Positions 1,720 through 63,450 of a DNA stretch of 64,000 nucleotides are shown piece after piece. Position 1 is the stretch's first letter; every line of letters starts with the position of its first letter. Source of the stretch: Malacoraja senta (lineage: Eukaryota); assembly GCA_038087875.1 (NCBI GenBank), contig CM075988.1, positions 18,540,001 to 18,604,000 of the forward strand. Reading direction: 5' to 3'. The translations under genes and the position numbers were made by a program. Below the pieces are notes generated by a model, which saw only the letters and a list, made by a program, of their open reading frames with translations, had not been told where the DNA came from and did not search any database.

Positions 1720-1922
1720 ATCGTTATCTCTTCATTGATACCTTTTGGCATGTTTTTCATTCATTAGTTTCATATCTCTCTATATCACCATCTATATCTC
1801 ACGTTGCCCTTTCCCCTGACTCTCAGTCTGAGGAAGGATCTAGACCCAAAACGCCACCTGTTCCTTTTCTCCAGAGATGCTGCCTGACCCGCAGAGTTAC
1901 TCCAGCTCTTTGTGTCTATCTC
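1720..1922 (+). mobile_element. Penelope-like element terminal fragment with degenerate hammerhead motif
   Basis: cagtCTGAGGAAGGATCTAGACCCAAAACGCCacc followed by the ...gatgctgcctgacccgcagagttactccagc unit shared with many other copies. Confidence 0.7.
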
Positions 1923-4674: not shown

Positions 4675-5367
4675 ATTTAAAGGGCCTGTCCCACTTGGCC
4701 GTCATTTGCGCCTCATTTACGCGTCATATGTAAATTAGGTCGACGCGTCGTCATGGGCGACGTCGCGCGCAAATCACGCGTCAGCACAGCCGTCTGGTGC
4801 ACGTGACGTCATTAGAATACATTGCGGCACGCAGCGACACATGGTTACGGACGTCGACGCACGGTGACATAACCATGCGTCACCACGCGATACACGTGAG
4901 ACGTCGGGACGCCAGCGTGCGACGCCAATGCATCAGCATACGTAGCCAATGCGTCAGCGTGCGTACGCAATACGTTAGACAGGTGGCGCGCGAGGATTTC
5001 GTTACACTACGAAATCCTGGAGCGCCGTGCGATACCGCGCACCACCGCATGCAATTCCACGCCTCACCACGCGCGATGCGTGCGTCACCCACGCGCACCC
5101 CACACGTCACGACGCGTCGACCTATTTTACATATGATGCGTAAATGAGGCATAAATGACGGCCAGGTGGGACGGGCCCTTAAGGAAGAACTGCAGATGCT
5201 GGAAAAATCCAAAGGTAGACAAAAATGTTGGAGAAACTCAGCGGGTGAGGCAGCATCCAAGGAGCGAAGGAATAGGCGATGTTTTGGGTCGAGACCCGAA
5301 ACGTTGCCTATTCCATTCCATAGATGCTGCCTCACCCGCTGAGTTTCTCCAGCATTTTTGTCTACCT
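4675..5367. mobile_element. Palindromic Penelope-derived element containing a nested MITE
   Basis: 15-bp TSD TCAAGAGTGTTTAAT at 4660-4674 and 5368-5382; inverted arms centred at ~5285-5300. Confidence 0.8.
4681..5179. mobile_element. PIF/Harbinger-type MITE, family 2 (CpG-rich)
   Basis: ~70-bp imperfect TIRs starting AGGGCCTGTCCCACTTGGCCGTCATTT; TAA TSD at 4678-4680 and 5180-5182. Confidence 0.88.
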
Positions 5368-5387
5368 TCAAGAGTGTTTAATGGTCT

Positions 5388-6539: not shown

Positions 6540-8864
6540 AAGCCCTGTCCCATGGTACGAGTTCATTCCAAGAGCTCTCCCGAGTTTGCCCTGATTCAAA
6601 CTTGGAGATTTACGGTAATGGCCACTCGTCGGTACTCGTGGCTCTCGTGGACATATTTCAACATGTTGAAAAATCTTCATGAGCCTTCCCGTGCTTACCT
6701 GCCGTTAGCGAGTCTTCCCGAGTACCTGCCGTTAGCGTTACATAGAAAATAGGTGCAGGAGTAGGCCATTCGGCCCTTCGAGCCTGCACCGCCATTCAAT
6801 ATGATCATGGCTGATCATCCAACTCAGTATCCCGTACCTGCCTTCTCTCCATACCCCCTGATCCCTTTAGCCACAAGGGCCACATCTAACTCCCTCTTAA
6901 ATATAGCCAATGAACTGGCCTCAACTACCCTCTGTGGCAGAGAGTTCCAGAGATTCACCACTCTCTGTGTGAAAAAGTTTTTCCTCATCTCGGTCTTAAA
7001 GGATTTCCCCCTTATCCTTAAGCTGTGACCCCTTGTCCTGGACTTCCCCAACATCGGGAACAATCTTCCTGCATCTAGCCTGTCCAATCCCATAAGAATT
7101 TTGTACGTTTCTATAAGATCCCCTCTCAATCTCCTAAATACTAGCGAGTATAAGCCAAGTCTATCCAGTCTTTCTTCATATGAAAGTCCTGACATCCCAG
7201 GAATCAGTCTGGTGAACCTTCTCAGCACTCCCTCTATGGCTATAATGTCCTTCCTCAGATTTGGAGACCAAAACTGTACGCAATACTCCAGGTGTGGTCT
7301 CACCAAGACCCTGTACAACTGCAGTAGAACCTCCCTGCTCCTATACTCAAATCATTTTGCTATGAAAGCTAACATACCATTCGCTTTCTTCACTGCCTGC
7401 TGCACCTGCATGCCTACTTTCAATGACTGGTGTACCATGACACCTAGGTCTCGCTGCATCTCCCCATTTCCTAATCGGCCACCATTAAGATAATAGTCTG
7501 CTTTCCTGTTTTTGCCACCAAAGTGGATAACCTCACATTTATCCACATTATACTGCATCTGCCAAACATTTGCCCACTCACCCAGCCTATCCAAGTCACC
7601 TTGCAGTCTCCTAGCATCCTCCTCACAGCTAACACTGCCCCCCAGCTTAGTGTCATCCGCAAACTTGGAGATGTTGCCTTCAATTCCCTCATCCAGATCA
7701 TTAATATAAATTGTAAATAGCTGGGGTCCCAGCACTGAGCCTTGCGGTACCCCACTAGTCACTGCCTGCCATTGTGAAAAGGACCCGTTTACTCCTACTC
7801 TTTGCTTCCTGTTTGCCAGCCAGTTCTCTATCCACATCAATACTGAACCCCCAATACCGTGTGCTTTAAGTTTGTATACTAATCTCTTATGTGGTACCTT
7901 GTCGAAAGCCTTCTGAAAGTCCAGATACAACACATCCACTGGTTCTCCCCTATCCACTCTACTAGTTACATCCTCGAAAAATTCTATAAGATTCGTCAGA
8001 CATGATTTACCTTTTGTAAATCCATGCTGACTTTGTCCAATGATTTCACCACTTTCCAAATGTGCTGCTATCCCATCTTTAATAAGTGACTCTAGCAGTT
8101 TCCCCACTACCGATGTTAGACTAACTGGTCTGTAATTCCCCCGTTTTCTCTCTCCCTCCCTTCTTAAAAAGTGGGGTTACGTTTGCTACCCTCCAATTCC
8201 TCAGGAACTACACCAGAATCTAAAGAGTTTTGCAAAAATTATCACTAATGCATCCACTATTTCTGGAGCTACTTCCTTAAGTACTCTGGGATGTAGCCTA
8301 TCTGGCCCTGGTGATTTATCGGCCTTTATCCATTCAATCTACCCAACACCACTTCCCGACTAACCTGGATTTCACTCAGTTCCTCCATCTCCTTTGACCC
8401 GCGGCCCCCTGCTATTTCCGGCAGATTATTTATGTCTTCCTTAGTGAAGACGGAACCAAAGTAGTTATTCAATTGTCCGCCATATCCTTGTTCCCCATGA
8501 TCAATTCACCTGTTTCTGACTGCAAGGGACCTACATTTGTTTTAACTAATCTCTTTCTCTTCACATATCTATAAAAACTTTTGCATCAGTGTTTTATGTT
8601 CCCTGCCAGTTTCCTTTCATAATCTATTTTCCCTTTCCTAATTAAGCCCTTTGTCCTCCTCTGCTGGTCCGCTAAGAGCCGCTAAGAGACGTCCCCGTTA
8701 CGTTCATTACGTATGAGCCGGTTAAGAGCCGGTTACAAGCTGCTAAGAGACGTCCCCGAGCTCCGATGTACCCGCTACGTTCATTCTCCGTGCTCACCAC
8801 CAGTTTGAATTATTTTAAACTCGGGAGAGCTCTTGGAATGAACTCGTAGCGTGGGACAGGGCTA
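6540..8864. mobile_element. PIF/Harbinger-type MITE, family 3 (contains a CR1 insertion)
   Basis: TIRs AAGCCCTGTCCCATGGTACGAGTTCATTCCAAGAGCTCTCCCGAGTTT / ...AACTCGTAGCGTGGGACAGGGCTA; TTA TSD; uninterrupted copy at 25137-25466. Confidence 0.88.
6741..8668 (-). mobile_element. CR1 LINE, 5'-truncated; RT domain with one in-frame stop and 5' indels
   Basis: ORFs 7352-8107 and 6824-7318 are in one frame (QHGF, YLDFQKAFDKV, GVPQGSVLGP, FADD, RGH motifs), separated by a TGA. Confidence 0.93.
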
Positions 8865-9361
8865 TTACTCCAGCATTTTGTGTCTATCTCCAATATAAAC
8901 CTAGGCTGTGTACTGTACTATCTTTACGATGCGAACAAATGACAAAACATCAGAGACTTTGTCATCCGGTGTGTGAGGATGATAAAGCACAACATCTAAT
9001 GTACAGTTTATAAATAGTGCAGCAGAAGAAACAGTTCAGCACAGCACAAACATATTAATAAAATATGCCACAGTCACTGGCCTTATTTTGGATTTGCGAT
9101 GGTTGCCGGATAGTATCTGCTGTTTCAGATTTGTGTTCTCCCAACATTTGTATGTTCTCACTGGAAAAGCATTCTCATCTGTGATCCTTTGTGTGAATGC
9201 CATCCGCTCGTGCAGATCACAGCTGTGGAACATAACAGTGCAGTTCCAAGGGTTTTCCATTGAGTTATCCCATTAGTCCCAGTCCCCACTCGTTCCTGGG
9301 GCTCGGCAAATGTTGTTGATTTTTGCAGGAGTCTCTGAACAGAAAGGCTTGCATTTGTACA

Positions 9362-12055: not shown

Positions 12056-12800
12056 AGAGAAACAAAAACAAAATGCTGGAGGAACAGGAGGGTCAGACAG
12101 CATCTGCAAAGGGTGAATCTGAAATCTGAAGTAGGGCTCTCGTCACCCATTCCTTCTATCCAGAGACGCTGCCAGTCACGCTGAGTTACTCCAGCATTTC
12201 GTGTCGATCTTCTGCAAAGGGAATGGCCTGATGATGATTTGGATCGGGACCCAGGTCCGTGGCACTGCAAGCCAGCAACTCTACTGCTGCACCTCTGTGC
12301 TGCCCAATCATTCCTGGGCTTGGAGAGAACACTTTTTCTGGGGACTTGATTTTTACTAAAGATGAAAAAGCTTTTCATGGAATTTTGTGGCAAGGAAAGT
12401 TCATACATCATGCTGTAGACGGCAAAAGCTGGAGTCACTCAGCGGGTCGAACAGCATCCCCGGAGAAAAGGAATAGATGACGTTTCGGGTCGACATCCTC
12501 CTTCAGAAGAACGGTCTTCAGATTCTGAGGAATGGTCTCGACCCGAAACGTCACCTATTCCTTTTCTCCAGTTAGAAACAATTAGATAGGTACATGGATA
12601 GGACAAGTTTGGAGGGGTATGGACCAAGCGCAGGCAGGTGGGGCTCGTGCAGCTGGGACAAGTTGTGGGCAAGTTGGGCCGAAGGCCTGCTTCCACACTG
12701 TATCACTCTATGACTCCATGCTGTCTGACCCGCTGAGTTACACCCAGCTTTTTGTGTCTATCCTCGGTTTAATCCAGCATCTGCAGTTCCTTCCTACACA
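12056..12800. repeat. Cluster of palindromic PLE fragments, a SINE head and a CR1 3' tail
   Basis: PLE unit at 12056-12212 and 12415-12800, the latter interrupted by a CR1 3'UTR at ~12575-12718. Confidence 0.65.
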
Positions 12801-12828
12801 AGTGGAGACCTGCACTGTCCCCAGCAAA

Positions 12829-12924
12829 GGTCTGTAGAAGGGTTTCGGCCCGAAACGTTACCTATTTCCTTCGCTCCATAGATGCTGCTGCACCCGCTGA
12901 GTTTTCTCCAGCATTTTTGTGTAC
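12829..12924 (+). mobile_element. 96-bp PLE-derived mini-element beginning with a hammerhead motif
   Basis: 14-bp TSD CTGTCCCCAGCAAA (12815-12828, 12925-12938); starts GGT-CTGTAGA-A-GGGT-TTCG-GCCC-GAAAC-GTT-ACC. Confidence 0.85.
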
Positions 12925-13589
12925 CTGTCCCCAGCAAAAGCTGGGCTGATATTTTTGCAAAGTGGGATTCAGGTCTGGCAGCAAACAGGGAGAGAGGGTA
13001 ACCTTCATTATCAAGAGCATTTTGTAGATAAAAGTGAGGTAGTTCCAACATTGAGCTGAGGTTGGGAGGGAGAGCGAGATAACAATGCTGGATTCCTTGC
13101 CTCTGACTCATGCCACAGTCAGGCAGAAGCCAGGCTCTGCTGATAATTAACAGTAAAAGCTGAAAAGTCTTTTGAGTTCCGTTTGTTTCAAGATGCATGG
13201 TGAATTATATAGAACTGCCGGGTAGAATTTTGTTTCGAAGTTTGTTTGATCTGGGAGCCATGACTGTTCTGTCCTTGCACGGGAATTATTGAGACTGAAA
13301 GATCTATGGAGAGTCAGTTCACTCACTGAGGAGATACAGAAGTCTGGCACAGAGACAGAGTCATAGATCTCTGGTGCCGTGCAGTCGCAGAGTACTGTAT
13401 TCACAGTCACAGAGGCATAGAGTTGTACCGCAAAGAAACTGGCCCTTTGGCTCATCACATCCAAGGCGTTTTTTAACTCATGCACACTAAAGGTGTACGT
13501 TGTCCAGATTTTGTCCATGGGTCATGGGGGAAGGAGCAGAATAATATTCCCAATAGGACGCCCTCTGATAAAGAGCTAGCACAGGATGG

Positions 13590-14475: not shown

Positions 14476-15253
14476 TCTCTCACTTATATATTTGTAAAGG
14501 AGCTGGGGTCACAGCATGGGAACAGGCCCTGTGGATCACCTTGCCCATGCCGGCCAAGTTAGCCTACTGGGCAAGTTCCATTGGCCTACATTTGGACCAT
14601 ATCCTTCTAACCCCCTCCCATCCATATATCTGTCCAAATGTCTTTTACTAGTGGCTCATTGTTACAGTACAGAAGACACGGCGGCCATTTTCACACCAGA
14701 AACTCTCACAAACAGCAACGCATTGATGCTCAGACAGCATCCGATAATCATTACTCACAGATGGGTAGATATTAGCCAGGACACCAAGGAGAACCATCTG
14801 CACTTCTTCAAATTGGCGCAGTGACATAGTGTACACCTATTTGAGAGAAGTGAACTCATTTGAGGCCTACCTGGAAACTGAGTATCTTCAACCATATTCC
14901 AGAGATGCTGCCTGGCTCGCTGAGCTCCTCTGGGTCTTTTTTCCCCATTATGAATATTGATTTAGTCACTGGTCACAGGGGAGCAGTTTGACCAAAAGCA
15001 TCGAGACATGCAACTGGAAAGGCTTCTAGCTTCTCCAGAGTGATAGGTTTTAGTGTGCAGAGTACTGACTGACTGGCCACTGACTGACAGTAATGAGATG
15101 AGGACCTCTTCACCTCTTCACCGCAGCTCGCGTTTCCTCCTTGTATTCATCTTGTTCGTGCTGAACGTCAGATCACTTACAGACGTTACCATCAGAGGTC
15201 CAACTCTGGGGAAACCTACAACCAGTATTGGCGAGGTACCTAATCCCGAGGAC

Positions 15254-19455: not shown

Positions 19456-20292
19456 TGATTTGATTTTGATTTTGATTTGATTTATTTCTTGTCATTTGAA
19501 CCTCAAAGAGGCTCAAACGAAACTCTGTTTCCACAGCCATACAAACAAAACAATTCCTACAAGACACACAAACAATTCAATTTACAGAAAAACATCCATC
19601 ACAGTGAATCTCCTCCTCACTGTGATGGAAGGCAAAGTCTTTTCTCTCCCCTGCCCCATTTTTCTCCCGATGTTGAAGCCCCAGGCGGGCAATGTTAAGT
19701 CCCACGGCCGTTGAGGGCGCGCCGGGCGGTATACGGCCTCGCTCCGGGCCCAAAAGTCACAAAGTTGGAGCCCCGGCGGGCGCTGGATTTACGGCCCCGC
19801 TCCGGGTCGTTCCAACCCCGCGACTCGAGCTGGAGAAGTTGCGTTGCGGGAGCTCCGGAAAACGGTCTCTCACCCGGACCCGCGAACTCCCGATATCATT
19901 GTCCACAGGTCTGCAGCTGGAGCTCCGGAGTCGGGCCGCAGCAACGAGCCACCACCGCTCCCCGCGCTCCGAGGCCGGCCAGCCCCACGATGGTGAGTCC
20001 GCAGCTCCACAGGCTCCGCGACTGGAGCCCCCCAGGTCGTCCCGGTCGGAGGCCGCTCCACGGAGCTGGGCCCCAACGACAACGGAGACCCGACAGGGAA
20101 AAGGTCGGGTCTCCCGTGCAGGGAAGAGATTTTTAAAGTTTCCCCCTCCCCCCCCCCCCCCCGCCCCCCACATATACACAATTAAAACAGTACAAAAAAA
20201 ACACAAACAACTACATTTAACTAGACAAAAATTAAAAAAAAAGACAGACGGGCTGTAGGGGCCGCTGCAGTAATCCGCGCCGCCGCACACAC
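19456..20292 (-). mobile_element. GC-rich non-autonomous retroposon (copy 1; Rex1-like tail)
   Basis: 5-bp TSD ACTAT (19451-19455, 20293-20297); AATAAA + (AATCA)n tail on the minus strand; interrupts CR1 ORF2. Confidence 0.85.
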
Positions 20293-23054
20293 ACTATGTC
20301 CCCTAGTTCTAGTTTCCCCGATCATTGGGAACATCCTCGGTGCATCCACCCGATCAAGGCCCCTCACGATCTTATATGTTTCAATGAGATCGCCTCTCAT
20401 TCTTCTAAACTCCAAAGAGTAGAGTTCCAGCCTACTTAACCTTTCCTCATATGTCAATCCCCTCATTGCAGGAATTAATCTTGTAAACCTTCGCTGCACT
20501 GCCTCCAGGGCCAGTACATCCTTTCTTAAGTATGGACCCCAGAACTGTACACAGTATTCCAAATGTGGTCTCACTAATACTGTGTACAGCTGCAGCAAGA
20601 CCTCCGTGTTTTTATACTCAATCCCCCTAGCAATAAAGGCCAAAACTCCATTGGCCTTCCTGATATCTTGCTGCACCTGCATACTAACTTTTAGTGATTC
20701 ATGTACTACTACCCCTAGATCCCTTTGCGTTGCATTACAGCGCAGCTCCTCCTCATTTAGAAAATAACTTGCCCTATCATTTTTTTTCCCAAAGTGAATG
20801 ACTTCACATTTATTAGTATTAAATTTCATCTGCCAAGTTGTTGCCCACTCACCTAGCTTATCTATATCCTTTTGCAGACTCTTCCTATCCTCCTCATCCC
20901 CTACTTTTCTTCCCATTTTTGTATCGTCCGCAAATTTTGATATATTACACTTGGTTCCCTCCTCCAAATCATTTATATAAATTGTGAACAACTGGGGTCC
21001 CAGCACCGACCCTTGCGGAACCCCGCTAGTTACCGGTTGCCATCCCGAATATGAACCATTTATCCCCACTCTCTGCTTCCTATTTGTTAGCCAATCCTCT
21101 ACCCATGCTAATATATTACCCCCAATCCCATAATTTTTTATTTTTAGCAATAGTCTCTTATGTGGCACCTTGTCAAAAGCCTTTTGGAAGTCCAAGTATA
21201 CCACATCCACCGGTTCCCCTTTATCCACCCGGGTTGTTACTTCCTCAAAGAATTCGAGCAGATTCGTTAAACAGGACTTCCCCTTCACAAAACCATGCTG
21301 GTTCTGTCCGATGAAGTCATGTCTATCCAAGTGCCCCGTTAGTGTTTCTTTAATAATTGTCTCTAACATTTTACCCACCACCGATGTTAGACTAACCGGT
21401 CTATAGTTACCCGCCTTCTGTTTACTTCCTTTTTTAAATATAGGTGTTACATTGGCCAATTTCCAATCCACTGGGACCGTTCCTGCCTCCAGGGAGTTTT
21501 GGAAAATTATCACCAATGCATCCACAATCCCCACCGCTATCTCCCTCAAGACCCTTGGATGTAATCCATCAGGCCCAGGGGATTTATCCTCCTTCAGTCT
21601 CATTAATTTCCCTAATACCACCTCCTTGGTGATCTTAATAGTATTTAGCTCCTCCATTCCTACCGCCCCCTGTTTATCCAGCGTTGGAATATTTTTTGTG
21701 TCTTCTATGGTGAAGACTGATACAAAATACTCGTTTAATGCCTTTGCCATTTCCATGTTCCCCACCAACAACTCTCCAGTCTCACCCTCCAATGGACCAA
21801 CGTTCACCTTAGCCACCCTTTTTCTTTTTATATAGCTATAAAAACTCTTACTATTAGTTTTTATGTTGTTCGCTAAATTCCTTTCATAGTCTATTTTCCC
21901 CGTCTTAATTAATCTCTTAGTTATTTTTTGCTGACCTTTAAATGCTTCCCAATCCTCTACCCTCCCACTATCTCTGGCTACCTTATATGCCCTTGCCTTC
22001 AGCCGAATACTATCCTTTATAGTTTTACTGAGCCATGGCTGACTGTTCTTACCCTTACCCCTTTTTTTCTTCATAGGAATAAATTTTTTCTTGAAGGTTA
22101 TACAGTAGATCCTTAAACGTACACCACTGCTCATGTACCGTCTTATTCTTGAGTCTGCTATCCCAGTACTTTGATCAGCTCAGTCCTCATACCTTCATAA
22201 TCCCCCTTATTTAGACTAAGTACCCTAGCCTGAGTTTCAACCTGCTCCCCTTCTATTTGAATATGGAATTCGACCATATTGTGGTCACTTGTTCCCAACG
22301 AGTCCCTAACTATGACATTTTTAATTAATCCTGCTTCATTACACAGGACCAGATCCAAGATTGCCTCCCCCCTTGTCGGTTCTGTGACATACTGTTCTAG
22401 GAACCCGTCTCTAATACATTCTATAAACTCTTCCTCTAGTTTACCCTGCCCAGTTTGGTTTGCCCAATTAATATGAAAATTAAAGTCCCCCATGATTACA
22501 GCAGTTCCCTTTTTACATGCGTCAACTATTTGCAGATTTATGTTCTGACTAACAGCGTCACAGCTATTTGGAGGTCTATAAATTACACCCACTAGTGTTT
22601 TTTTCCCCTTGTTATTCTCTATCTGTACCCAAGCTGTTTCACTATCCTGATCCTTCAACGCAATATCCTTCCTCTCTATTGCCGTTATTCCCTCCCTTAT
22701 TAAAAGGGCCACCCCTCCTCCCTTTCTTTCCTGTCTATTTTTTCTAATTGTCGAGTACCCCTCTATATTTAACTCCCAGTCCTGATCCCCTTGCAGCCAT
22801 GTCTCCGTAATGGCCACGATATCATAACTATATATACTTAATTGCACCGTTAATTCATTTATCTTATTTCGAATACTCCGTGCATTTAGATACAGCACTT
22901 TCAGATGATTTTTACTACCCTTCCTTTCTGTTTTTGCCTCTTTTACATCTAGAGCTTTATCTTCACACATTCTGAATCCTCCTGTCACATTTTGATTTTC
23001 CGTTTCCCCACTGATACCCTGCTCTATTTCCTCTACCCCTGCCGTTATTACCAC
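20293..23054 (-). pseudogene. CR1 ORF2 (APE endonuclease + RT), frameshifted near 22080-22170 and split near its C-terminus by an insertion
   Basis: YLNARS, ITETW, GGGV, GDFN, SDHN (APE); SPGPDG, NYRPVSLTS, QHGF, PQGSVLGP, FADD (RT). The last codons continue at ~19270-19455. Confidence 0.92.
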
Positions 23055-23077
23055 CCTTGATACCTCCCCCCCGCTAC

Positions 23078-23586
23078 TTAGTTTAAAGACCTCTCTACTG
23101 CCCTAGTTATATGATTTGCCAGGACCCCAGTCCCAGCACCGTTCAGGTGAAGTCCGTCCTTACAGAACAGATCCCCCCTGTCCCAGTACTGGTGCCAGTG
23201 GCCCAAGAAACCAAACCCATTATTCCCACACCAGTCTTTGAGCCACGCATTCAGCTTTTTAATTTTACGTACTCTCGCCGATTTGGCCCGTGGCTCAGGT
23301 AGCAATCCGGAGATCAGTACCCTCGAGGTTCTGCTTTTTAATTTATTCCCTAACTGCTCAAACTCCTTCAGCAGATCCTCCTTCCTCGTCCTTCCTATGT
23401 CATTGGTCCCCACATGGACCACGACCACTGGATCCTCCCCCTCCCTCTGCAAATTTCTCTCCAGCATCGCAGAGATATCCTTAACCCTAGCACCGGGTAG
23501 GCAACACAGCCTTCGGGACATGTTCTGCTGGCCACAGAGAACCTTATCTACCCCCCGAATAATACTATCCCCTATCACAACGGTAG
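23078..23586 (-). pseudogene. CR1 ORF1 C-terminal SGNH/GDSL esterase-like domain (N-terminally truncated)
   Basis: VVIGDS, LPGA, HVGTND and DGLHLN blocks. Confidence 0.9.
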
Positions 23587-23653
23587 GAATCATGCAGCCA
23601 TTTTCTGCACAGATATCTCCAATATGACGAGATCTAATTTAGTGACACAGAAT

Positions 23654-26740: not shown

Positions 26741-26897
26741 AAGCAAAGGAAAGGTTTCAGTCTATATTCAGCCTAGCGGGTACAACTCTGGACTCTTTTT
26801 CAGGCGGGTTGTGGTTTTGAGTCCCTCTCCGACAACATACAAGATGGAAACGTTTCCACTGGTGATTCAAGCTTGCAAAGCCACCCTGTCAGTCGGT

Positions 26898-27402
26898 GAT
26901 AGACACAACATGCTGGAGTAACTCAGCGGGTCAGGCAGCATCTGTGGAGAGAAGGAATAGGTGACATCTCGGATCGAAGCCCTTCTTCAGACTGAGAGTC
27001 AGGGGGGGAGGCAAATTAGAGGTATGATAAGGTTCAGAACATATCAGAGCCGGCACTGATGGCCAAGGAAAGATGGAGCCCACAATGGTCCATTGTTGGC
27101 TGTGGAAGAGGTGATAATGAAGGGATACATGGATACGAACAGCGGAACTGGCAGGACGACCAGGGTGGGGTAGGGTTGGACTGTTGGCAGATCAAGTTCC
27201 CTCCTGGGATAAATAAAGTTGTATCGTATCATATTGTATCATAACGTTTCCCTTTCCCCTGACTCTCAGCCTGAAGAAGGGTGTCGACCCAAAACGTCAC
27301 CTATTCCTTTTCTCCAAAGATGCTGCCTGAGACGCTGAGTTACTCCAGCTTTTTGTGTCCATCTTCGGTTTAAACCAGCACCTGCAGTTCCCATCCTACA
27401 CG
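26898..27402. mobile_element. Penelope-derived element with inverted termini and a longer internal part
   Basis: Inverted PLE units at 26898-27000 and 27250-27402, the latter with CTGAAGAAGGGTGTCGACCCAAAACGTC. Confidence 0.75.
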
Positions 27403-28735: not shown

Positions 28736-29340
28736 GTGTAGGAAGGAACTGCAGACGCTGGTTTAAACCGAAGACCGACACAAAATGATTGAGTAACCCA
28801 GCGGGACAGGCAGCATCTCTGGAGAGAAGGAATGGGTGACGTTTCGGGTCGAGACCCTTCTACAGACTAATCAAAATGATGTTGCATTTTGGGGAAGGTT
28901 AACATGGGCAGGACCTACACTGTGAATGGTAGGGCTCTGGGGAGTGTTGTGGAGCAGAGGGATCTAGGAGTGCAGGTGCATGGTAATTTGAAGGTCGGGC
29001 CGCAGATAGGTGGTCATAAAGGCTTTTGGTACATTGGCCTTCATCAGTCAGAGTATAGAAGGGCCTTGATCCGAAACGTCACCAATTCCTTCTCTCCAGA
29101 GGTGCTGCCTGTCCCGTTGAGTTACTCCAGCTTTTTGGATCTACCTTCAATATTCATAAAGTTGGGATGTAAGCTGCCCAAGCAAAATATGAGGCGCTGC
29201 TCATCCAATTTGCATTTGGCCTCACTCTGACAAACACTAACTTCTGCTGAAGTAAAAGGGTCCTAACCCAAAATGTCGTCTGCCCATTCCCTCCACCGAT
29301 GATCAGCTGAGTTCCTCCAACACCTAGTTTTCTGCTAAAG
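28736..29340. mobile_element. PLE fragments, including a GIY-YIG C-terminal remnant (29155-29232, -), with a CR1 RT fragment (28880-29057)
   Basis: Minus strand reads QSEAKCKLDEQRLIFCLGSLHP, resembling the PLE endonuclease C-terminus; the CR1 piece reads RTYTVNGRALGSVVEQRDLGVQVH. Confidence 0.7.
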
Positions 29341-31007: not shown

Positions 31008-31870
31008 ATTTTAGTTTAGTTCAGAGACATAGCGCGGAAACTGGTCCTACAGCCCACCGAGTCTGCGTCGACCAGCAATCCCCACACACTAACACTAGCC
31101 TACACATGCTAGGGACAATTAAAGGGCCTGTCTCACTTGGGCGACCTAATCCGCGAGTTCTGGCGAGTTTGCCCTCGACTCATACTCGCAGCATGGTCGA
31201 CACGAGGTCGTAGGAGGTCTTCGTAACTCTCCTTCATGCTCGAGAGTGGTCACCGCGTACTCGAGGCCTCAGCGGTTTTTTCAATATGTTAAAAAATGCC
31301 CGCGAGTGAAAAAAGGTCGCCATGGGAAAAAATCGATACTTTTTTTACTCGTAGGTTTAGTCATAGTAGGTCGTAGTAGGTCGGTATGTTAGTCGTCGGT
31401 AATCGAGGGTAGTCGAAGGCAGTCGAAGGTAGTCGTAGATAGTCTTCATCATAGTCGAAGGGAGGTCGAAGAGAGGTCGAAGGAGATCGAAGGAGGTCGT
31501 CTTCACTCTCCACTATTCGGTGTCCAATTTTCCCGAAGTTAGTCGTAGCTAGTCGAAGCTGGTCTTCAACATAGTCGAAGGAGGTCGAAGGAGGTCTTTT
31601 ACATGGTCGAAGGAGGTCTTCAACATGTCATTTTTTCAAACTCTTCTGAACTCGCCAATTAGGTCGCCCAAGTGGGACAGCCCCTTTACAATGCTACTGA
31701 AGCCAATTAACCTACAAACCTGTAGGTCTTTGGAGTGTGGGAAGAAACTGGATCTCCCGGAAAACCCCCACACAGGTAACGGGGAGAATGTAAAACTCCG
31801 TACAGATAGCACCCGTGTTCAGGATCGACCCCGGGTCTCTGGCGTTGTGAGGCAGCAACTCTACTGCTGA
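31008..31870 (-). mobile_element. HE1-type V-SINE interrupted by a Harbinger MITE
   Basis: Consensus gggacaaTTTAca is split at 31122/31686. Confidence 0.85.
31123..31685. mobile_element. PIF/Harbinger-type MITE, family 1 (inverted relative to 885-1456)
   Basis: TIRs AGGGCCTGTCTCACTTGGGCGACCTAAT / ATTAGGTCGCCCAAGTGGGACAGCCCCT; flanks TAA and TTA. Confidence 0.9.
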
Positions 31871-31964: not shown

Positions 31965-32180
31965 CAAAAATAAAGTGCTAGAAGAACTCAGTGGGTCAGG
32001 CAGCATCTGTGGAGAGAATGAACAGACGATGTTTTGGCTTTGTAGAAGGGTCTGTCTTTGTAGAAGGGACAGAAATGTTGTCTGTCCGTTCCCTCCACAG
32101 ATGCTGCTTGACCTGCTGAGTTCCTCCAGCACTTTGTGTTTTGCTCATGATTCCAGCATCTGCAGTTCCTTGTGTCTCTA
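31965..32180. mobile_element. Older palindromic PLE-derived element
   Basis: Inverted arms aaagtgctagaagaactcag / ctgagttcctccagcacttt. Confidence 0.7.
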
Positions 32181-33246: not shown

Positions 33247-33810
33247 CCCAAATCATACTGACTGAAGGTTCATTTACCATCAGGCATGCTTCAAAGCAGG
33301 GGGACAACATATTGAGGAGCTCTTTAACAGAAGAAGAGTTATCCTATGTTACCTGATGATAGAGTCCCTGACCTGCCTAACACAGGGTAATATATGCAAC
33401 AAGAATTGTACAGATGCATATGCGACAAATAAGGCACTATTGACACAAAATGCTGGAGTAACTCAGTGGGACAGGCAGCTTCACTGGAGAGAAGGAATGA
33501 ATGCGTGACGTTTGGGATCGAGGCCCTTCTTCAGACTGACTTCAGAAAGCATTATTGATTATTGATATGGAGCTTGTTACCTCCGCTGCCTGATGTCAAC
33601 AGTGACATTTGCCAACAATACTCACAGAAGCTTCTGCAGGAGACAGAATGACAACTCAATGAGATTTGTTGCCTGTGTTGACCAGGATGGAAGGCCAGAA
33701 GAGGTTCACTAGAGTGGGAGAACAGTACTCAGTGCATCATGCCTCTGACACCAAGGTAGCATTAGATGAGGTGTGGCTTCAAGGAGCCGGTGTGTTCTTC
33801 AGGTTGAGGT

Positions 33811-40447: not shown

Positions 40448-43393
40448 CTAGTCCCATCTACCTGCACTCAGACCATAACCCTCCATTCCTTTCCCGTCCA
40501 TATACCCATCCAATCTATTTTTAAAGGATAACATCGAACCTGCCTCCACCACTTCCACTGGAAGCTCATTCCACACAGCTACCACTCTCTGAGTAAAGAA
40601 GTTCCCCCTAATGTTCCCCCTAAACTTCTGTCCCTTAAATCTCAAGTCATGTCCCCTTGTTTGAATCTTCCCTACTCTCAATGGGAAAAGCTTATCCACG
40701 TCCACTCTGTCTAACCCGCTCATAATTTTAAAGACCTCTATCAAGTCCCCTCTTAACCTTCTGCGCTCCAAAGAATAAAGACCTAACTTGTTCAACCTTT
40801 CTCTGTAACTTAGTTGCTGAAACCCAGGCAACATTCTAGTAAATCTCCTCTGTACTCTCTCTATTTTGTTGACATCCTTCCTATAATTAGGTGACCAAAA
40901 TTGTACTCCATACTCCAGAATTGGCCTCACCAATGCCTTGTACAATTTTAACATTACATCCCAACTTCTATATTCAATGCTCTGATTTATAAAGGCCAGC
41001 ACACCAAAAGCTTTCTTTACTACCCTATCTACATGAGATTCCACCTTCAGGGAACTATGCACAGTTATTCCTAGATCCCTCTGTTCAACTGCATTCCTCA
41101 ATTCGCTACCATTTACCGTGTACGTCCTATTTTGATTTGTCCTGCCGAGATGTAGCACCTCACATTTGTCAGCATTAAACTCCATCTGCCATCTTTCAGC
41201 CCACTCTTCCAAATGGCCTAAATCTCTCTGTAGACTTTGAAAATCTACTTCATTATCCACAACACCACCTATCTTAGTATCATCTGCATACTTACTAATC
41301 CAATTTTCCACACCTTCATCCAGATCATTGATGTACATGACAAACAACAGTGGACCCAACACAGACCCCTGAGGCACCCCACTAGTCACCGGCCTCCAAC
41401 CTGACAAACAGCCATCCATCATTACTCTCTGGCATCTCCCATTCAGCCACTGTTGAATCCATCTTGCTACTCCACCATTAATACCCAACAATTGAATCTT
41501 CTTAACCAACCTTCCATGAGGAACCTTGTCAAAGGCCTTACTGAAGTCCATATAGACAACATCCACTGCTTTACCCTCATCAATTTCCCTAGTAACCTCT
41601 TCGAAAAATTCAAGAAGATTAGTCAAGCATGACCTTCCAGGCACAAATCCATGTTGACTGTTCCTAATCAGACCCTGCTTATCCAGATGCTTATATATAT
41701 TATCTTTAAGTATCCTTTCCATTAATTTGCCCACCACTGACGTCAAACTAACAGGTCTATAATTGCTAGGTTTACTCTTCGAACCCTTTTTAAACAACGG
41801 AACAACATGCGCAGCACGCCAATCCTCCGGCACTATTCCCGTTTCTAATGACATTTGAAATATTTCTGTCATAGCCCCTGCTATTTCTACACTAACTTCC
41901 CTCAATGTCCTAGGGAATATCCTGTCAGGACCTGGAGACTTATCCGTTTTCATATTTTTCAAAAGTGTCCGCACCTCCTCTTCTTTGAATCTCACAGTTT
42001 CCATTGCTACTCTGCTCGTTTCCCTTACCTCACATAATTCCATATCCTTCTCCTTCGTGAATACCGAAGAAAAGAAATTGTTCAATATCTCCCCCATCTC
42101 TTTTGGCTCTGCAGATAGCTGTCCACTCTGACTCTCTAATGGACCGATTTTATTCCTTGTTATCCTTTTGCTATTAATATAGCTGTAGAAACCCTTTGGA
42201 TTTACTTTCACCTTACTTGCCAAAGCAACCTCATATCTTCTTTTAGCTTTTCTAATTTCTTTCTTAATATTCTTTTTACATTCTTTATACTCCTCAAGCA
42301 CCTCATTTACTCCATGCTGCCTATAATTATTGTAGATCTCTCTCTTTTTCCGAACCAAGTGTCCAATTTCCCTTGAAAACCATGGCTCTTTCCATTTTTT
42401 ACTATTTCCTTTCAACCGAACAGGGACATAAAGATTCTGTACTCTTAAAATTTCACCCTTAAATGTCCTCCATTTTTCTTCTACATCCTTCCCATAAAAC
42501 AACATGTCCCAATTCACTCCTTTTAAATCCTTTCGCATCTCCTCAAAGTTAGCCTTTCTCCAAACAAAAATCTCAACCCTAGGTCCAGTTCTGACCCTCT
42601 CCATAATTATATTGAAACTAATGGTATTGTGATCACTGGACCCGAAGTGCTCCCCGACGCATACCTCCGCCACTTGCCCTGTCTCATTTCCTAACAGGAG
42701 GTCCAGCACTGCCCCTTCTCTAGTAGGTACCTCTATGTATTGCTGCAAAAAACTATCTTGCACACATTTTACAAACTCCAAACCATCCAGCCCTTTTACA
42801 GAATGTGTTTCCCAGTCTATGTGTGGAAAATTGAAATCTCCCACAATCACTACCTTGTGCTTACTACTAATATCTGCTATCTCCTTACATATTTGCTCTT
42901 CCAATTCTCGCTCCCCATTTGGCAGTCTATAATACACCCCTATAAGTGTTGCTACACCTTTCCCATTTCTCAGTTCCACCCAAATAGCCTCCCTAGACGA
43001 GCCCTCTAATCTATCCTGCCAAAGCACTGCTGTAATATCTTCCTTGACAAGCAATGCAACACCCCCACCTCTTGCCCCTCCAATTCTATCACCCCTGAAG
43101 CAACGAAATCCTGGAATATTTATTTGCCAATCACAGCCCTCCTGCAACCATGTTTCACTGATCGCCACAACATCATACTTCCAGGTGTCAATCCAGGCTC
43201 TAAGCTCATCCACCTTTCTTACAATGCTCCTAGCATTAAAATATACACATTTAAGAAACCCACCACCACTTATTCTCTGTTTATTATCTTTTTCTTCTTT
43301 CTCCCCTACATTTTGGGTCCGAGTGCTTCCCTTCTCTGCCTCCTGCCTCCCACATTTTACACTAGCTTTCTCTATTTGAGTCCCTCCCCCCAA
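40448..43393 (-). CDS. CR1 ORF2 polyprotein: APE endonuclease + reverse transcriptase (981 codons, uninterrupted; true start uncertain)
   Basis: YFNARS, ISETW, GDFN, SDHN; SPGPD, NYRPVSLTS, QHGF, YMDFSKAFDKV, PQGSVLGP, YADD, RGH. Confidence 0.93.
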   Translation of the reverse strand: MGGGTQIEKASVKCGRQEAEKGSTRTQNVGEKEEKDNKQRISGGGFLKCVYFNARSIVRKVDELRAWIDTWKYDVVAISETWLQEGCDWQINIPGFRCFRGDRIGGARGGGVALLVKEDITAVLWQDRLEGSSREAIWVELRNGKGVATLIGVYYRLPNGERELEEQICKEIADISSKHKVVIVGDFNFPHIDWETHSVKGLDGLEFVKCVQDSFLQQYIEVPTREGAVLDLLLGNETGQVAEVCVGEHFGSSDHNTISFNIIMERVRTGPRVEIFVWRKANFEEMRKDLKGVNWDMLFYGKDVEEKWRTFKGEILRVQNLYVPVRLKGNSKKWKEPWFSREIGHLVRKKREIYNNYRQHGVNEVLEEYKECKKNIKKEIRKAKRRYEVALASKVKVNPKGFYSYINSKRITRNKIGPLESQSGQLSAEPKEMGEILNNFFSSVFTKEKDMELCEVRETSRVAMETVRFKEEEVRTLLKNMKTDKSPGPDRIFPRTLREVSVEIAGAMTEIFQMSLETGIVPEDWRAAHVVPLFKKGSKSKPSNYRPVSLTSVVGKLMERILKDNIYKHLDKQGLIRNSQHGFVPGRSCLTNLLEFFEEVTREIDEGKAVDVVYMDFSKAFDKVPHGRLVKKIQLLGINGGVARWIQQWLNGRCQRVMMDGCLSGWRPVTSGVPQGSVLGPLLFVMYINDLDEGVENWISKYADDTKIGGVVDNEVDFQSLQRDLGHLEEWAERWQMEFNADKCEVLHLGRTNQNRTYTVNGSELRNAVEQRDLGITVHSSLKVESHVDRVVKKAFGVLAFINQSIEYRSWDVMLKLYKALVRPILEYGVQFWSPNYRKDVNKIERVQRRFTRMLPGFQQLSYRERLNKLGLYSLERRRLRGDLIEVFKIMSGLDRVDVDKLFPLRVGKIQTRGHDLRFKGQKFRGNIRGNFFTQRVVAVWNELPVEVVEAGSMLSFKNRLDGYMDGKGMEGYGLSAGRWD

Positions 43394-43398
43394 CCGTT

Positions 43399-43906
43399 CT
43401 AGTTTAAAGTCTCCCCAGTAGCCTTTGCAAATCTCCCCGCCAGGATATTGGTGCCCCTCGGGATCAAGTGCAACCCGTCCTTTCTGTACAGGTCACTCCT
43501 TCCCCAAAAGAAATCCCAATGATCCAGAAATTTGAATCCCTGCCCGCTGCACCAGTTCCTCAGCCACGCATTTATCCTCCACCTCACTCCATTCCTACTC
43601 TCACCGTCACGTGGCACAGGTAGTAATCCCGAGATTGTTACCTTTGTAGACCTTCTCCTTAACTCTCCTCCCAACTCCCTAAATTCTCCTTTCAAGACCT
43701 CTTCTCTTTTTCTACCTATGTCATTGGTACCTATATGTACCACAACCTCAGGCTCCTCTCCCTCCGATTTCAGGATACCTTGGACGCGTTCAGACACATC
43801 CCTGACCCTGGCACCAGGGAGGCAAACTACCATCCGGGTCTCCTGACTGCGTCCACAGAATCGCCTATCCGACCCCCTAACCATAGAGTCCCCTATTACT
43901 ATTGCC
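43399..43906 (-). pseudogene. CR1 ORF1 SGNH esterase-like domain (N-terminally truncated)
   Basis: IVIGDS, LPGA, HIGTND, DGLHL. Confidence 0.9.
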
Positions 43907-44149
43907 CCACCGTGCCCCACCCCAATATATTTGCTTTGCACATAGTCAATAATTCTGAAAAAAGTTAATTTATGGAATGAATAAAACAAAATAAATGTTC
44001 CCATTGAGGCCTGTCCAAAAAATATAGAACCTAGAACAGTGCTGCGCAAGAACAGGTCAGTCAGCCCACAATGTTTGTGCTGAACATGATGTTAAGACCA
44101 CTTCTTTGCTGCATTTGCATCCCTCCAAGTTGGCTTATTGGGCTGGTCA

Positions 44150-58155: not shown

Positions 58156-58898
58156 CAATGGTTCAATAGTCCCTTTATTATCACCTGTGCCAGGTCACTG
58201 TGAGATTCTTTTTCTACATACGGATCAGTAAGTTTGTTGATATACATAAGTACAATCCCGTTATGTACATAATGCATATAAATCACCCACTGAGTCTTTA
58301 TGCAAGAGTCGCCAGGTTTTGGTACCATTTCAAAGTCGCAACTGCAGCTGTCAAGGGTTATGGGGAGAAGGCAGTAGAATGGGGTTAGGAGGTAGAGATC
58401 AATCAGCCATGATTGAATGGCAGAGTAGACTTGATGGGCCGAATGGCCTAATTCTACTCCTATCATTTATGAACATGAGCTGGCCATAAAGGCCCCTTGC
58501 AGCCGTGCCTCTACCTGGTCGACCCCCAACTGTCGTTCCCCTCCTCGACCCACTGAGTTTCTCCAGCACGCTGTTTTTCATTCCCTACCATGGGCGGCAC
58601 GGTGGCGCAGCGGTAGAGTTGCTGCCTTACAGCGCCAGAGACCCGTGTTCGATCCTGACCACGGATGCTGTCTGTATGGAGTTTGTCATTTCTCCCTGTG
58701 CTTCAGTTTCCTCCCACATTCCAAAGACGCATAGTTGACAACAATTCTGGAGAAACTCAGCAGGTGAGGCAGCATCTATCGAGCGAAGGAAATAGGCAAC
58801 TTTTCGGGTCGAGACCCTTCTTCAGACTCCAGCATTTTTGTCTACCTTTGATTTTCCAGCAACTGCAGTTTCTTCTTAAACATAGTCTTTGTAGGTTA

Positions 58899-58990
58899 CA
58901 CAAAAATGCTGGAGAAACTCAGCGGGTGCAGCAGCATCTATGGAGCGAAGGAAATAGGCAACGTTTCGGGCCGAAACCCTTCTTCAGACC
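58899..58990 (-). mobile_element. 92-bp PLE-derived mini-element beginning with a hammerhead motif
   Basis: 14-bp TSD GTCTTTGTAGGTTA (58885-58898, 58991-59004); same family as 12829-12924. Confidence 0.87.
58957..58990 (-). ncRNA. Minimal type I hammerhead ribozyme motif (predicted)
   Basis: GGU-CUGAAGA-A-GGGU-UUCG-GCCC-GAAA-CG-UU-GCC: intact CUGANGA and GAAA core, UUCG-capped stem II, loopless palindromic stem III, short stem I. Confidence 0.72.
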
Positions 58991-60121
58991 GTCTTTGTAG
59001 GTTAATTGGCTTGGTGTAAGTGTAAATTGTCCCAAGACTGTGTAGGATAGCGTTAATGTGCTGGGATCGCTGGTCAGCGCGGACTTGGTGGGACGAAAAG
59101 CCTGTTTCCACGCTGTATCTTTAAAGTCTAAAGTCTACCTGGTTTATCTCTATGACTAATTTTAATTCACATCTACCAAACTCTTTGTATTGTAATGTAT
59201 GTGTTGCTGGCACCAACCACTAATAGTACGTTAATGGCCTAATTAGACACCTGCTGTTTATTAATGTGGATTATAATCTGGCAGTGGGTTTGCAAAATTC
59301 TGGGAAGAAACAAGTCTGCGATTTAAAAAAATCATAAATTCATTTAAATTTCATATTTTAAATCTAACTAATATACAGCACTATTCACACTTTTTGCAGC
59401 AAGTTCACTTCTCTTGCAAATACCAGTTGAATAATTTAAATATAAAACCATGTTTATTTTGGCACGAATAAAAGATCAGATTTCAAAAAAAGGGAGAGTG
59501 TGGTTTGTCGGTTCAAAAAGGTATGTTTAATAAAAGGCAGGAAATAATTTGGGAGTTCTTCAAGTAATGTTATTTAGATGGAATTGCAATAACTGTGGAT
59601 TTATTGTGCTATTGAATTTGGCAAATGGCTCAGGTGCTTTAGAGTGATGGGTTTCACAGTCATCCACATCTTCAAGGTGAATGTCAGAAAACTCAAGAGG
59701 TTGGTGCCTGGTGAAGTGGCACACCTGGTGACCACACATCTAGGAGCTTTCCCAGCTGCAGCTTCTTGCTTGAAGCCCATCGTCTTAATTTGAGTTTAGG
59801 ATGAGGGGGGACCTCATTGAAACTTACCGAATAGTGAAAGGCCTGGTTTGAGTGAGTGTGGAGAGGATGTTTCCACTAGTGGGAGAGTCTAGGACCAGAG
59901 GGCACAGCATCAGAATAAAAGGACGTACCTTCAGAAAGGAGATGAGGAGGAACCTCTTTAGTCAGAGGGTGGTGAATCTGTGGAATTCATTGCCACAGAC
60001 GGCTGTGGAGGCCGTCAATGGATATTTTTAAGGCGATTGACAGATTCTTGATTAGTAAGGATGTCAGGGGTTATGGGGTGAAGGCAGGACAATGGGATTG
60101 AGAAGGAAAGATAGATCAGCC

Positions 60122-63169: not shown

Positions 63170-63450
63170 CTGCAGGAACCTGGATTACATTTAGCCCAAG
63201 ATAGACACCAAGTGCTGGAGTAACTCAGCGGGCCAGGCAGCATCTCTGGAGAAAAAGGATGGGTGACATTTCAGGTCGTGACCCTTCTTCAGACCATTAC
63301 ATTTAGCCCACCTTGGCACTGTCTCCTGGACTGCATTAACCCAGATTCCTGGGGCTTACATCAACCTGATTTAAACAGCTCCATCCCATGTCCCGACCCA
63401 AAACATCACCCATTCCCGCTGATTTACTCCAGCATTTTGTGTCTATTCAT
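63170..63450. mobile_element. Penelope-derived element with inverted arms
   Basis: PLE unit at 63170-63295 and an inverted remnant at 63390-63450. Confidence 0.68.

Follow-up and report, generated by a model that had tools for sequence, protein, structure and literature searches.

A shared 5′ edge at a minimal hammerhead motif in short insertions of a likely Penelope-like terminal repeat

Two short inserts and their repeat family

The window, that is the whole 64,000-nt stretch of DNA that was analysed, holds two short inserts that begin with the same bases, referred to below as copies 1 and 2. These two and a third insert with the same start have the following features:

12815..12828 (+): left target-site duplication (TSD) of copy 1, 14 bp, perfect
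12829..12924 (+): body of copy 1, 96 nt, numbered +1..+96; a single-armed, short-ended insertion of a terminal repeat of Penelope-like element (PLE) type
12829..12862 (+): minimal type I hammerhead motif of copy 1, by consensus fit; predicted cut between 12859 and 12860
12925..12938 (+): right TSD of copy 1, 14 bp, perfect; its first 2 nt equal the continuing sequence of the family
58885..58898 (−): 3′-side TSD of copy 2, 14 bp, perfect; overlaps the continuing sequence of the family by 2 nt
58899..58990 (−): body of copy 2, 92 nt; a single-armed, short-ended insertion
58957..58990 (−): minimal hammerhead of copy 2; its core, CUGAAGA, is intact and the predicted cut falls between 58960 and 58959
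58991..59004 (−): 5′-side TSD of copy 2, 14 bp, perfect
63199..63295 (−): third copy starting with GGTCTG, of another subfamily, with a 15-bp TSD (63184-63198 / 63296-63310)

A sequence-only reading of this DNA had described copies 1 and 2 as near-identical, with a common GGTCTG start and perfect 14-bp TSDs, and all three properties were recovered when re-measured. The alignment of the two copies (93 columns) contains 3 differences, namely two substitutions and one 1-nt indel. When 96-nt segments of the window were placed at random, a perfect 14-bp repeat abutted them in 8 of 20,000 cases. The 2-nt match at the right TSD of copy 1 probably reflects priming microhomology. One contig of the public run X1 covers 12903-13070, so the 3′ junction of copy 1 is present in that run; the empty site is absent among the joints listed in public contigs, and nothing follows from its absence.

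The two insertions exist as claimed, but they are merely 2 of 28 members of one family in the window, with the third GGTCTG copy on the minus strand near its end. They are young members of a very common repeat and no rare pair. A local search found 43 segments of the repeat, which we grouped by hand into the 28 insertions. Short fragments at 8864-8901, 14898-14930 and 58548-58568 were excluded, 12718-12800 was counted within the insertion at 12424, and the segments at 26894 and 27240 were taken to be one interrupted insertion. Together the 28 insertions make up ∼6.5% of the window, or one per ∼2.3 kb. Seventeen are single-armed, of which 12 are short-ended (about +88..+99) and 5 are tailed copies of ∼130 nt (to about +123..+134); the “tail” is the 35–40 nt that separate the two 3′ end classes. 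The other 11 are head-to-head two-armed insertions, and in 11/11 of them the tail is confined to one arm; the short arm ends earlier than usual in two of these. TSDs of 5–15 bp could be assigned in 16 of the 28 insertions, some of them short or mismatched. Further members to which the text refers are:

1733..1916 (+): upstream-extended copy, with 92 nt upstream inside an 8-bp TSD; the parent context is a CT-rich run, then CTCAGTCTG
26894..27005 (−): upstream-extended copy; the alignment runs at least 12 nt upstream of +1, and CT-rich sequence continues to about 27185
27240..27401 (+): tailed copy that reaches about 30 nt beyond +1 on the upstream side and probably belongs, in inverted orientation, with the 26894 arm
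28736..28868 (−): copy with one arm and a tail, from +1 to about +134, which illustrates the long 3′ end class
58736..58880 (−): two-armed insertion adjoining copy 2, with the short arm from +1, the inverted arm tailed and a 6-bp TSD

The repeat is likely the terminal repeat (pLTR) of a Penelope-like retrotransposon. It matches 4 of 6 pLTR features, namely a minimal hammerhead, an optional tail of 30–40 nt, an inverted head-to-head arrangement and a variable TSD length. Among the 26 of 46 window ORFs that were scanned, none gave a GIY-YIG match, and RVT_1 matches fell in LINE-like ORFs away from these repeats; no PLE ORF was found among them, and the parent element is thus putative. The copies had been read as a defined retrozyme-like unit of ∼95 nt mobilised by a PLE. 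The PLE architecture and retrotransposition with TSDs stand, but a separate unit of ∼95 nt is not supported, as the same family also occurs as tailed single-armed insertions (5/17), as two-armed insertions (11/28) and as upstream-extended arms (three). Tandem arrays of the unit, which that reading had proposed to look for, were absent from the 24 TRF rows for the window. The sequence type of the focal copies (A-type) is also found in the two-armed insertions 5182-5369 and 58736-58880.

Several details of individual members were recorded. In 5182-5369 the arms meet in a near-palindromic stem II, giving a near-perfect palindrome of ∼190 bp without a hammerhead core. Copy 2 landed directly beside the older two-armed insertion, which itself lies inside another repeat (58700-59080); such nesting could reflect local targeting or chance. 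A different repeat at 12573-12717, which we take to be SINE-like, interrupts the tailed arm of the two-armed insertion 12424-12800.

The window is repeat-rich animal DNA, whose repeats look like those of a skate or ray, and it holds several LINE-type ORFs with RVT_1, Exo_endo_phos and GDSL matches (26 of 46 ORFs scanned). At 40448-44091 (−) lies a LINE with an unbroken 1014-aa frame for endonuclease and RT, upstream of which a second frame encodes a GDSL esterase domain; it is presumably a CR1-type element and likely young. A similar, broken copy occupies 20221-23638. Related imperfect tandem repeats of 10–11 bp lie in opposite orientation at 943-1400 and 31390-31627, apparently as parts of another dispersed repeat family.

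The hammerhead motif and its fold

In both focal copies the motif starts with a 3-bp stem I strand, followed by the core at +4..+10, an extra A and a 4-bp stem II with a UUCG loop; GAAA, the palindromic CGUU, the predicted cut after +31 and the 3′ strand of stem I complete the layout. The core reads CUGAAGA in copy 2 and CUGUAGA in copy 1, where U replaces the conserved A6. This confirms the earlier description of one intact and one singly substituted core, and the changed A6 likely makes the copy 1 hammerhead inactive. Rfam gave no hammerhead at gathering score across the whole window, nor up to E=10 in 58700-59050. We therefore base the assignment on how the motif fits, position by position, the published consensus for minimal hammerheads (available part of the PMC4209133 supplement). 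In the available part of that study, minimal PLE hammerheads combine CUGANGA and one extra base with a G-C closing pair of stem II, GAAA, a loopless palindromic helix III ending CGUU or CGUC and a short stem I, and occur mostly as single dispersed motifs (PMC4209133). The fit supports the view that this is a PLE-type minimal type I hammerhead with a palindromic, loopless helix III. Pattern scans for the motif elsewhere gave 0 matches in the first metagenome contig set and in viral contigs; eight other matches (seven in the second metagenome scan and one in genome contigs) were each only 20–28 nt long and were put down to chance.

The best monomer fold was not a hammerhead in any of the five copies tested, and its stability relative to shuffles ranged from z −0.32 to +0.71. 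The hammerhead fold lay 1.5–2.7 kcal/mol above the best fold in both focal copies and 7–15 kcal/mol above it in four other copies. For the helix III palindrome of copy 2 we computed a self-duplex of −5.7 kcal/mol. Structure-pair counts over 20 genomic copies showed no excess over shuffles on any of five measures, which is as expected for decaying copies and thus gives no support for selection on the fold.

These folds bear on the proposal that the hammerhead of a long template halts RT and that the cDNA made up to this point is integrated. The boundary does coincide with the 5′ strand of stem I, and forming the hammerhead would be cheap in the focal copies. However, the favoured fold is a different one and no more stable than shuffled sequence, the cost is several times higher in the other four copies, and an RT arriving at +1 should already have displaced the 3′ strands of stems I and II. 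A stop of RT caused by structure is expected on the 3′ side of a fold. A fixed stop at the ribozyme fold, as had been suggested, is therefore very unlikely.

The 5′ edge and its sequence context

The 5′ positions were assigned by hand from the alignments. In 23 of the 28 insertions the farthest 5′ end lies within −2..+5, a span of 7 nt at the 5′ edge of the hammerhead; the remaining five start at about −192 (extent uncertain), −92, +12, +14 and +35, and no insertion begins at +32, the cut site. Even the constant-hazard truncation model that favours such clustering most gives a P of about 5e-27. An abutting TSD or inverted arm pins 19 of the 23 boundary starts, and the four unpinned ones (17569, 28736, 61476, 62350) could run on into unrecognised upstream sequence. 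The proposed non-random boundary at the 5′ strand of stem I is thus borne out. So is the statement that self-cleavage does not account for it: with 0/28 starts at +32, its position excludes self-cleavage as the cause of the 5′ end. Collecting end positions and TSD lengths, as had been suggested, did give a peak at the hammerhead edge, but one 7 nt wide in which the exact GG start is a minority. Position −2, which is upstream of the predicted A at +1, is the start in five of the 23, and TSD overlap could account for just one of these (24305). The 5′ edge is thus real and general, and a few bases wide.

Three arms extend upstream (1733, 26894 and 27240); they carry the CT-rich run ending CTCAGTCTG and have A, not G, at +1. 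At this position G is found in all three single-armed copies with a TSD of at least 14 bp (P about 0.012 if untemplated); alternatively, the G may be templated in a subfamily, where it adds a third pair to stem I. The first bases of the element are reiterated at the 5′ junctions of 12114, 12424/12523, 31972 and 33439, which fits a template end near +1. Short reiterations, as if RT re-engaged the template end, were noted at 12114-12135, 12500-12530, 32038-32072, 33530-33546 and 29044-29056.

The same edge was seen in public data. Contigs of four runs were aligned on 12770-13070 at 85%, giving 37,962, 31,491, 2,773 and 3,007 contigs; such counts over-represent unique junctions and under-represent collapsed upstream sequence. 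For X15 and X17 an RNA origin is a guess; these runs, too, consist of contigs, and they were not taken as evidence of transcription. The largest listed class of loose 5′ ends fell at 12830, the second G, in all four sets (154, 198, 45 and 28 contigs), and among the classes listed there was none at 12829 (GG) or at the cut site. The consensus of the loose ends at 12830 ends in ..TCA with an agreement of just 0.35–0.43 upstream, and the flanks are therefore unrelated. Among the molecule starts no site had many listed, all runs being contigs. In X1 and X7 the summed depth inside the element exceeded that of the flank ∼3 × 10^5-fold, which is an order of magnitude and not a copy number; the ratio agrees with the density of the repeat in the window. 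The diagnostic bases of the focal copies at 12889-12890 made up about half of the depth in these two runs. A few contigs, 1–8 each of the 2,773–37,962 aligned, join the tail end (12792-12801) to 12830/12836. These tail-to-head joints could be rare head-to-tail dimers, which might fold as dimeric hammerheads.

A further explanation is that the inserts are non-LTR retrozymes, for which the hammerhead would release monomers from tandem arrays, to be circularised and reinserted. The type I hammerhead, the short non-coding unit and a TSD of >4 bp agree with the definition in the available part of PMC7229834; vertebrate retrozymes with solo monomers and a PLE origin are described in the available part of bioRxiv 10.64898/2026.07.22.740005, and the self-duplex of helix III in copy 2 and the possible head-to-tail joints point in the same direction. 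Against this, the TRF rows for the window contain no array of the unit, the copies neither start at the cut site nor are circularly permuted, and the joints are confined to the handful of contigs given above. Moreover, the hammerhead is of the minimal PLE type with a stem I of 2–3 bp, not of the canonical type with an extended stem I and loop contacts (PMC7229834, same part). We regard a retrozyme origin as scarcely credible.

The parent context at the edge matches both the Drosophila Inr TCAGTY and the vertebrate BBCABW at 6/6 positions, with the A at +1; the chance of finding an Inr inside the 7-nt span is 0.004 for the former and 0.10 for the latter. At +28..+32 the DPE is matched at 4/5 positions in five of the six copies scored and at 3/5 in one, and at +18..+27 the MTE is matched at 6–8/10 in the copies scored, although these DPE/MTE-like bases are also constrained by hammerhead function. 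The consensus sequences and their strict spacing were taken from PMC5580651, the available part of which also describes the DPE as rare in humans. An internal Inr/DPE promoter in the pLTR is described for Penelope of D. virilis (PMC2377424, available part), and an untemplated G in L1 has been read as a copy of the cap (PMC9341517, available part). Because of the Inr match, the DPE/MTE-like spacing, the D. virilis promoter and the cap-derived G of L1, we favour an RNA start at the hammerhead edge. Judged from these motifs, an internal Pol II promoter likely overlaps the ribozyme motif.

Read another way, and with an equally good fit, these bases form a 3′ splice site (CT-rich run, CTGAC, CAG); in D. 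virilis Penelope, what maps to the 5′ end of helix I is the 3′ end of an intron and not a TSS (PMC4209133, available part). The boundary might accordingly be a post-transcriptional RNA end, produced when a longer PLE RNA is trimmed 5′-to-3′ to a protein-bound pLTR/hammerhead edge or cut at the splice-acceptor-like CAG at +1/+2, with all other steps unchanged. The spread of the ends over 7 nt, including the starts at −2, would fit a footprint, and a bound complex is plausible given that the Anolis hammerhead cleaves only with PLE protein (PMC11167929, available part). However, trimming does not predict the Inr/DPE spacing, and a splice cut should leave a common exon upstream of +3, whereas the contigs show ..TCA and then no agreement, in DNA-like and RNA-guess runs alike. 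A spliced-exon source was rejected on that ground. A lariat stop was rejected as well, since it predicts starts near −5 and 0/28 were seen there. We consider an RNA end made after transcription possible but doubtful.

Another explanation is a self-propagating, SINE-like unit, in which solo copies with an internal promoter are remobilised in trans by PLE protein and the focal subfamily descends from masters of ∼95 nt. The near-identity of the focal copies, with their common ends, diagnostic bases and perfect TSDs, would suit this, as would the share of those bases in the depth of X1 and X7 and the few joints that possibly represent head-to-tail units. In Adineta, pLTR sequences suffice for mobilisation in trans (PMC3846280, available part). 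However, the tailed and two-armed insertions of A-type sequence depend on template beyond the short end that a solo copy does not contain, and the Anolis PLE requires about 55–60 nt beyond the RT start sites (+172 vs 111–118; PMC11167929, available part). A solo copy would also be without the upstream half of the Inr. Nor was a tRNA-derived head detected, as ARAGORN found no tRNA gene and Rfam no family, although a degenerate head could escape both. Propagation as a unit of its own is thus distinctly unlikely.

Origin of the short inserts and known systems

In 9 of the 16 TSD-bearing insertions, both focal copies included, the 3′ junction overlaps the continuing sequence of the family by at least 2 nt (2–5 nt; P 2.5e-4, two-sided null). 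The 5′ junction, in contrast, carries extra bases. This combination is as expected if a sense template is primed at the 3′ end and synthesis finishes at the template end near +1.

We therefore propose, at a probability a little below 0.6, that the inserts are run-off cDNAs, comparable to strong-stop DNA, for which RT primes internally ∼95 or ∼130 nt from the RNA 5′ end and runs off that end at the upstream edge of the hammerhead. Transcription would start at the A of CTCAGTC or close to it, three bases ahead of the hammerhead core. The nicked target would then prime at one of two internal sites, at about +90–99 or +123–134, as suggested by the two 3′ end classes and by the Anolis PLE, often with the microhomology of 2–5 nt seen in 9/16 junctions. 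As none of the 28 insertions starts at the cut site, this hammerhead had likely not cut the template. On reaching the template end RT may add a base, possibly by copying the cap, or stutter, and the cDNA would be joined to the second nick to give the 5–15-bp TSD. Use of both priming sites could produce the head-to-head two-armed form, and read-through RNA or a template jump could produce the few upstream-extended copies. The length of ∼95 nt would then result from how far RT starts from the RNA start and would not mark a separate element. The focal inserts are thus most likely the commonest by-product of a Penelope-like element and not a new mini-element.

The run-off reading draws on the available part of the Anolis work, in which two internal RT start sites define the tail, unprocessed RNA is the dominant template and hammerhead cleavage requires the PLE protein (PMC11167929). 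Priming in vitro proceeded there without homology, from which the microhomology in 9/16 junctions differs, and this speaks against the reading. In tailed copies such as 28736-28868 (−) there are two occurrences of a CCAGCAT-like motif (about +78 and +108), each 10–25 nt upstream of one 3′ end class and either able to pair with GATGCTG near +50. A dimeric RT may bind or be positioned at these two sites.

A more far-reaching version, which we hold to be speculative and rather unlikely as a joint claim, gives the hammerhead a second role as downstream core promoter. RNA would start at the first base of the ribozyme and end after the 31st, where the 3′ copy self-cleaves; the resulting 31-nt terminal redundancy, made up of the ribozyme itself, would allow the run-off cDNA a strand transfer of the retroviral kind. 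The stubs, roughly 10^5 in number, would then be failed transfers that were integrated, and the rare upstream-extended copies successful ones. If true, PLE hammerheads would have a definite function and the rebuilding of pLTRs an explanation; both the completion of full-length copies and the role of the hammerhead are open in PLE biology (available parts of PMC11167929 and PMC8557442).

The sharp 5′ edge is the informative part of the finding. With one insertion per ∼2.3 kb, the family documents on a very large scale where RT has started and stopped in nature. Should the shared edge mark the RNA start, the PLE promoter maps to the ribozyme and the run-off-then-jump model becomes directly testable; if it does not, the copies are ordinary PLE debris, at risk of being mislabelled as SINEs in repeat libraries.

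A literature search that covered few subscription papers found neither this family nor a fixed 5′ boundary of PLE insertions at a hammerhead edge, and Repbase or Dfam may list the repeat. The searched supplement files of PMC4209133, PMC11167929 and PMC8557442, each available in part, held no cartilaginous fish and not this motif.

Truncated insertions of EN+ PLEs, as described in the available parts of PMC3846280 and PMC8557442, resemble the window family in carrying a minimal hammerhead in the repeat and an optional tail of 30–40 nt on one arm, and in their inverted head-to-head arms, variable TSDs, heavy 5′ truncation and solo copies. Their truncation is variable, however, and their solo pLTRs are partly recombination products without TSD, whereas here TSD-bearing solo copies with 5′ ends within 7 nt are the commonest product. 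The Poseidon PLE of Anolis carolinensis (PMC11167929, available part) is alike in that two RT start sites downstream of the hammerhead define the tail and uncleaved RNA is the main template. It differs, in a comparison by description and not by sequence, in its homology-free priming as against the 2–5-nt overlap here, and the available part gives no fixed 5′ boundary or TSS to set beside the fixed edge. The minimal hammerheads of metazoan PLEs (PMC4209133, available part) share the consensus, but stem II is short here (4 bp, with a tetraloop). Non-LTR retrozymes, in the available parts of PMC7229834 and bioRxiv 10.64898/2026.07.22.740005, are likewise short, non-coding, hammerhead-bearing repeats related to PLE pLTRs; the window family differs in that it is not tandem, its ends are not set by cleavage and its hammerhead is minimal rather than canonical.

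In the run-off reading the closest parallel is minus-strand strong-stop DNA, as in both cases a short cDNA would terminate at the RNA start. In LTR retroelements this DNA arises when priming near the RNA 5′ end yields a short cDNA that ends where the RNA begins. The present case would differ in that there is no PBS or LTR, that nicked genomic DNA and not a tRNA primes, and that the short cDNA is itself integrated.
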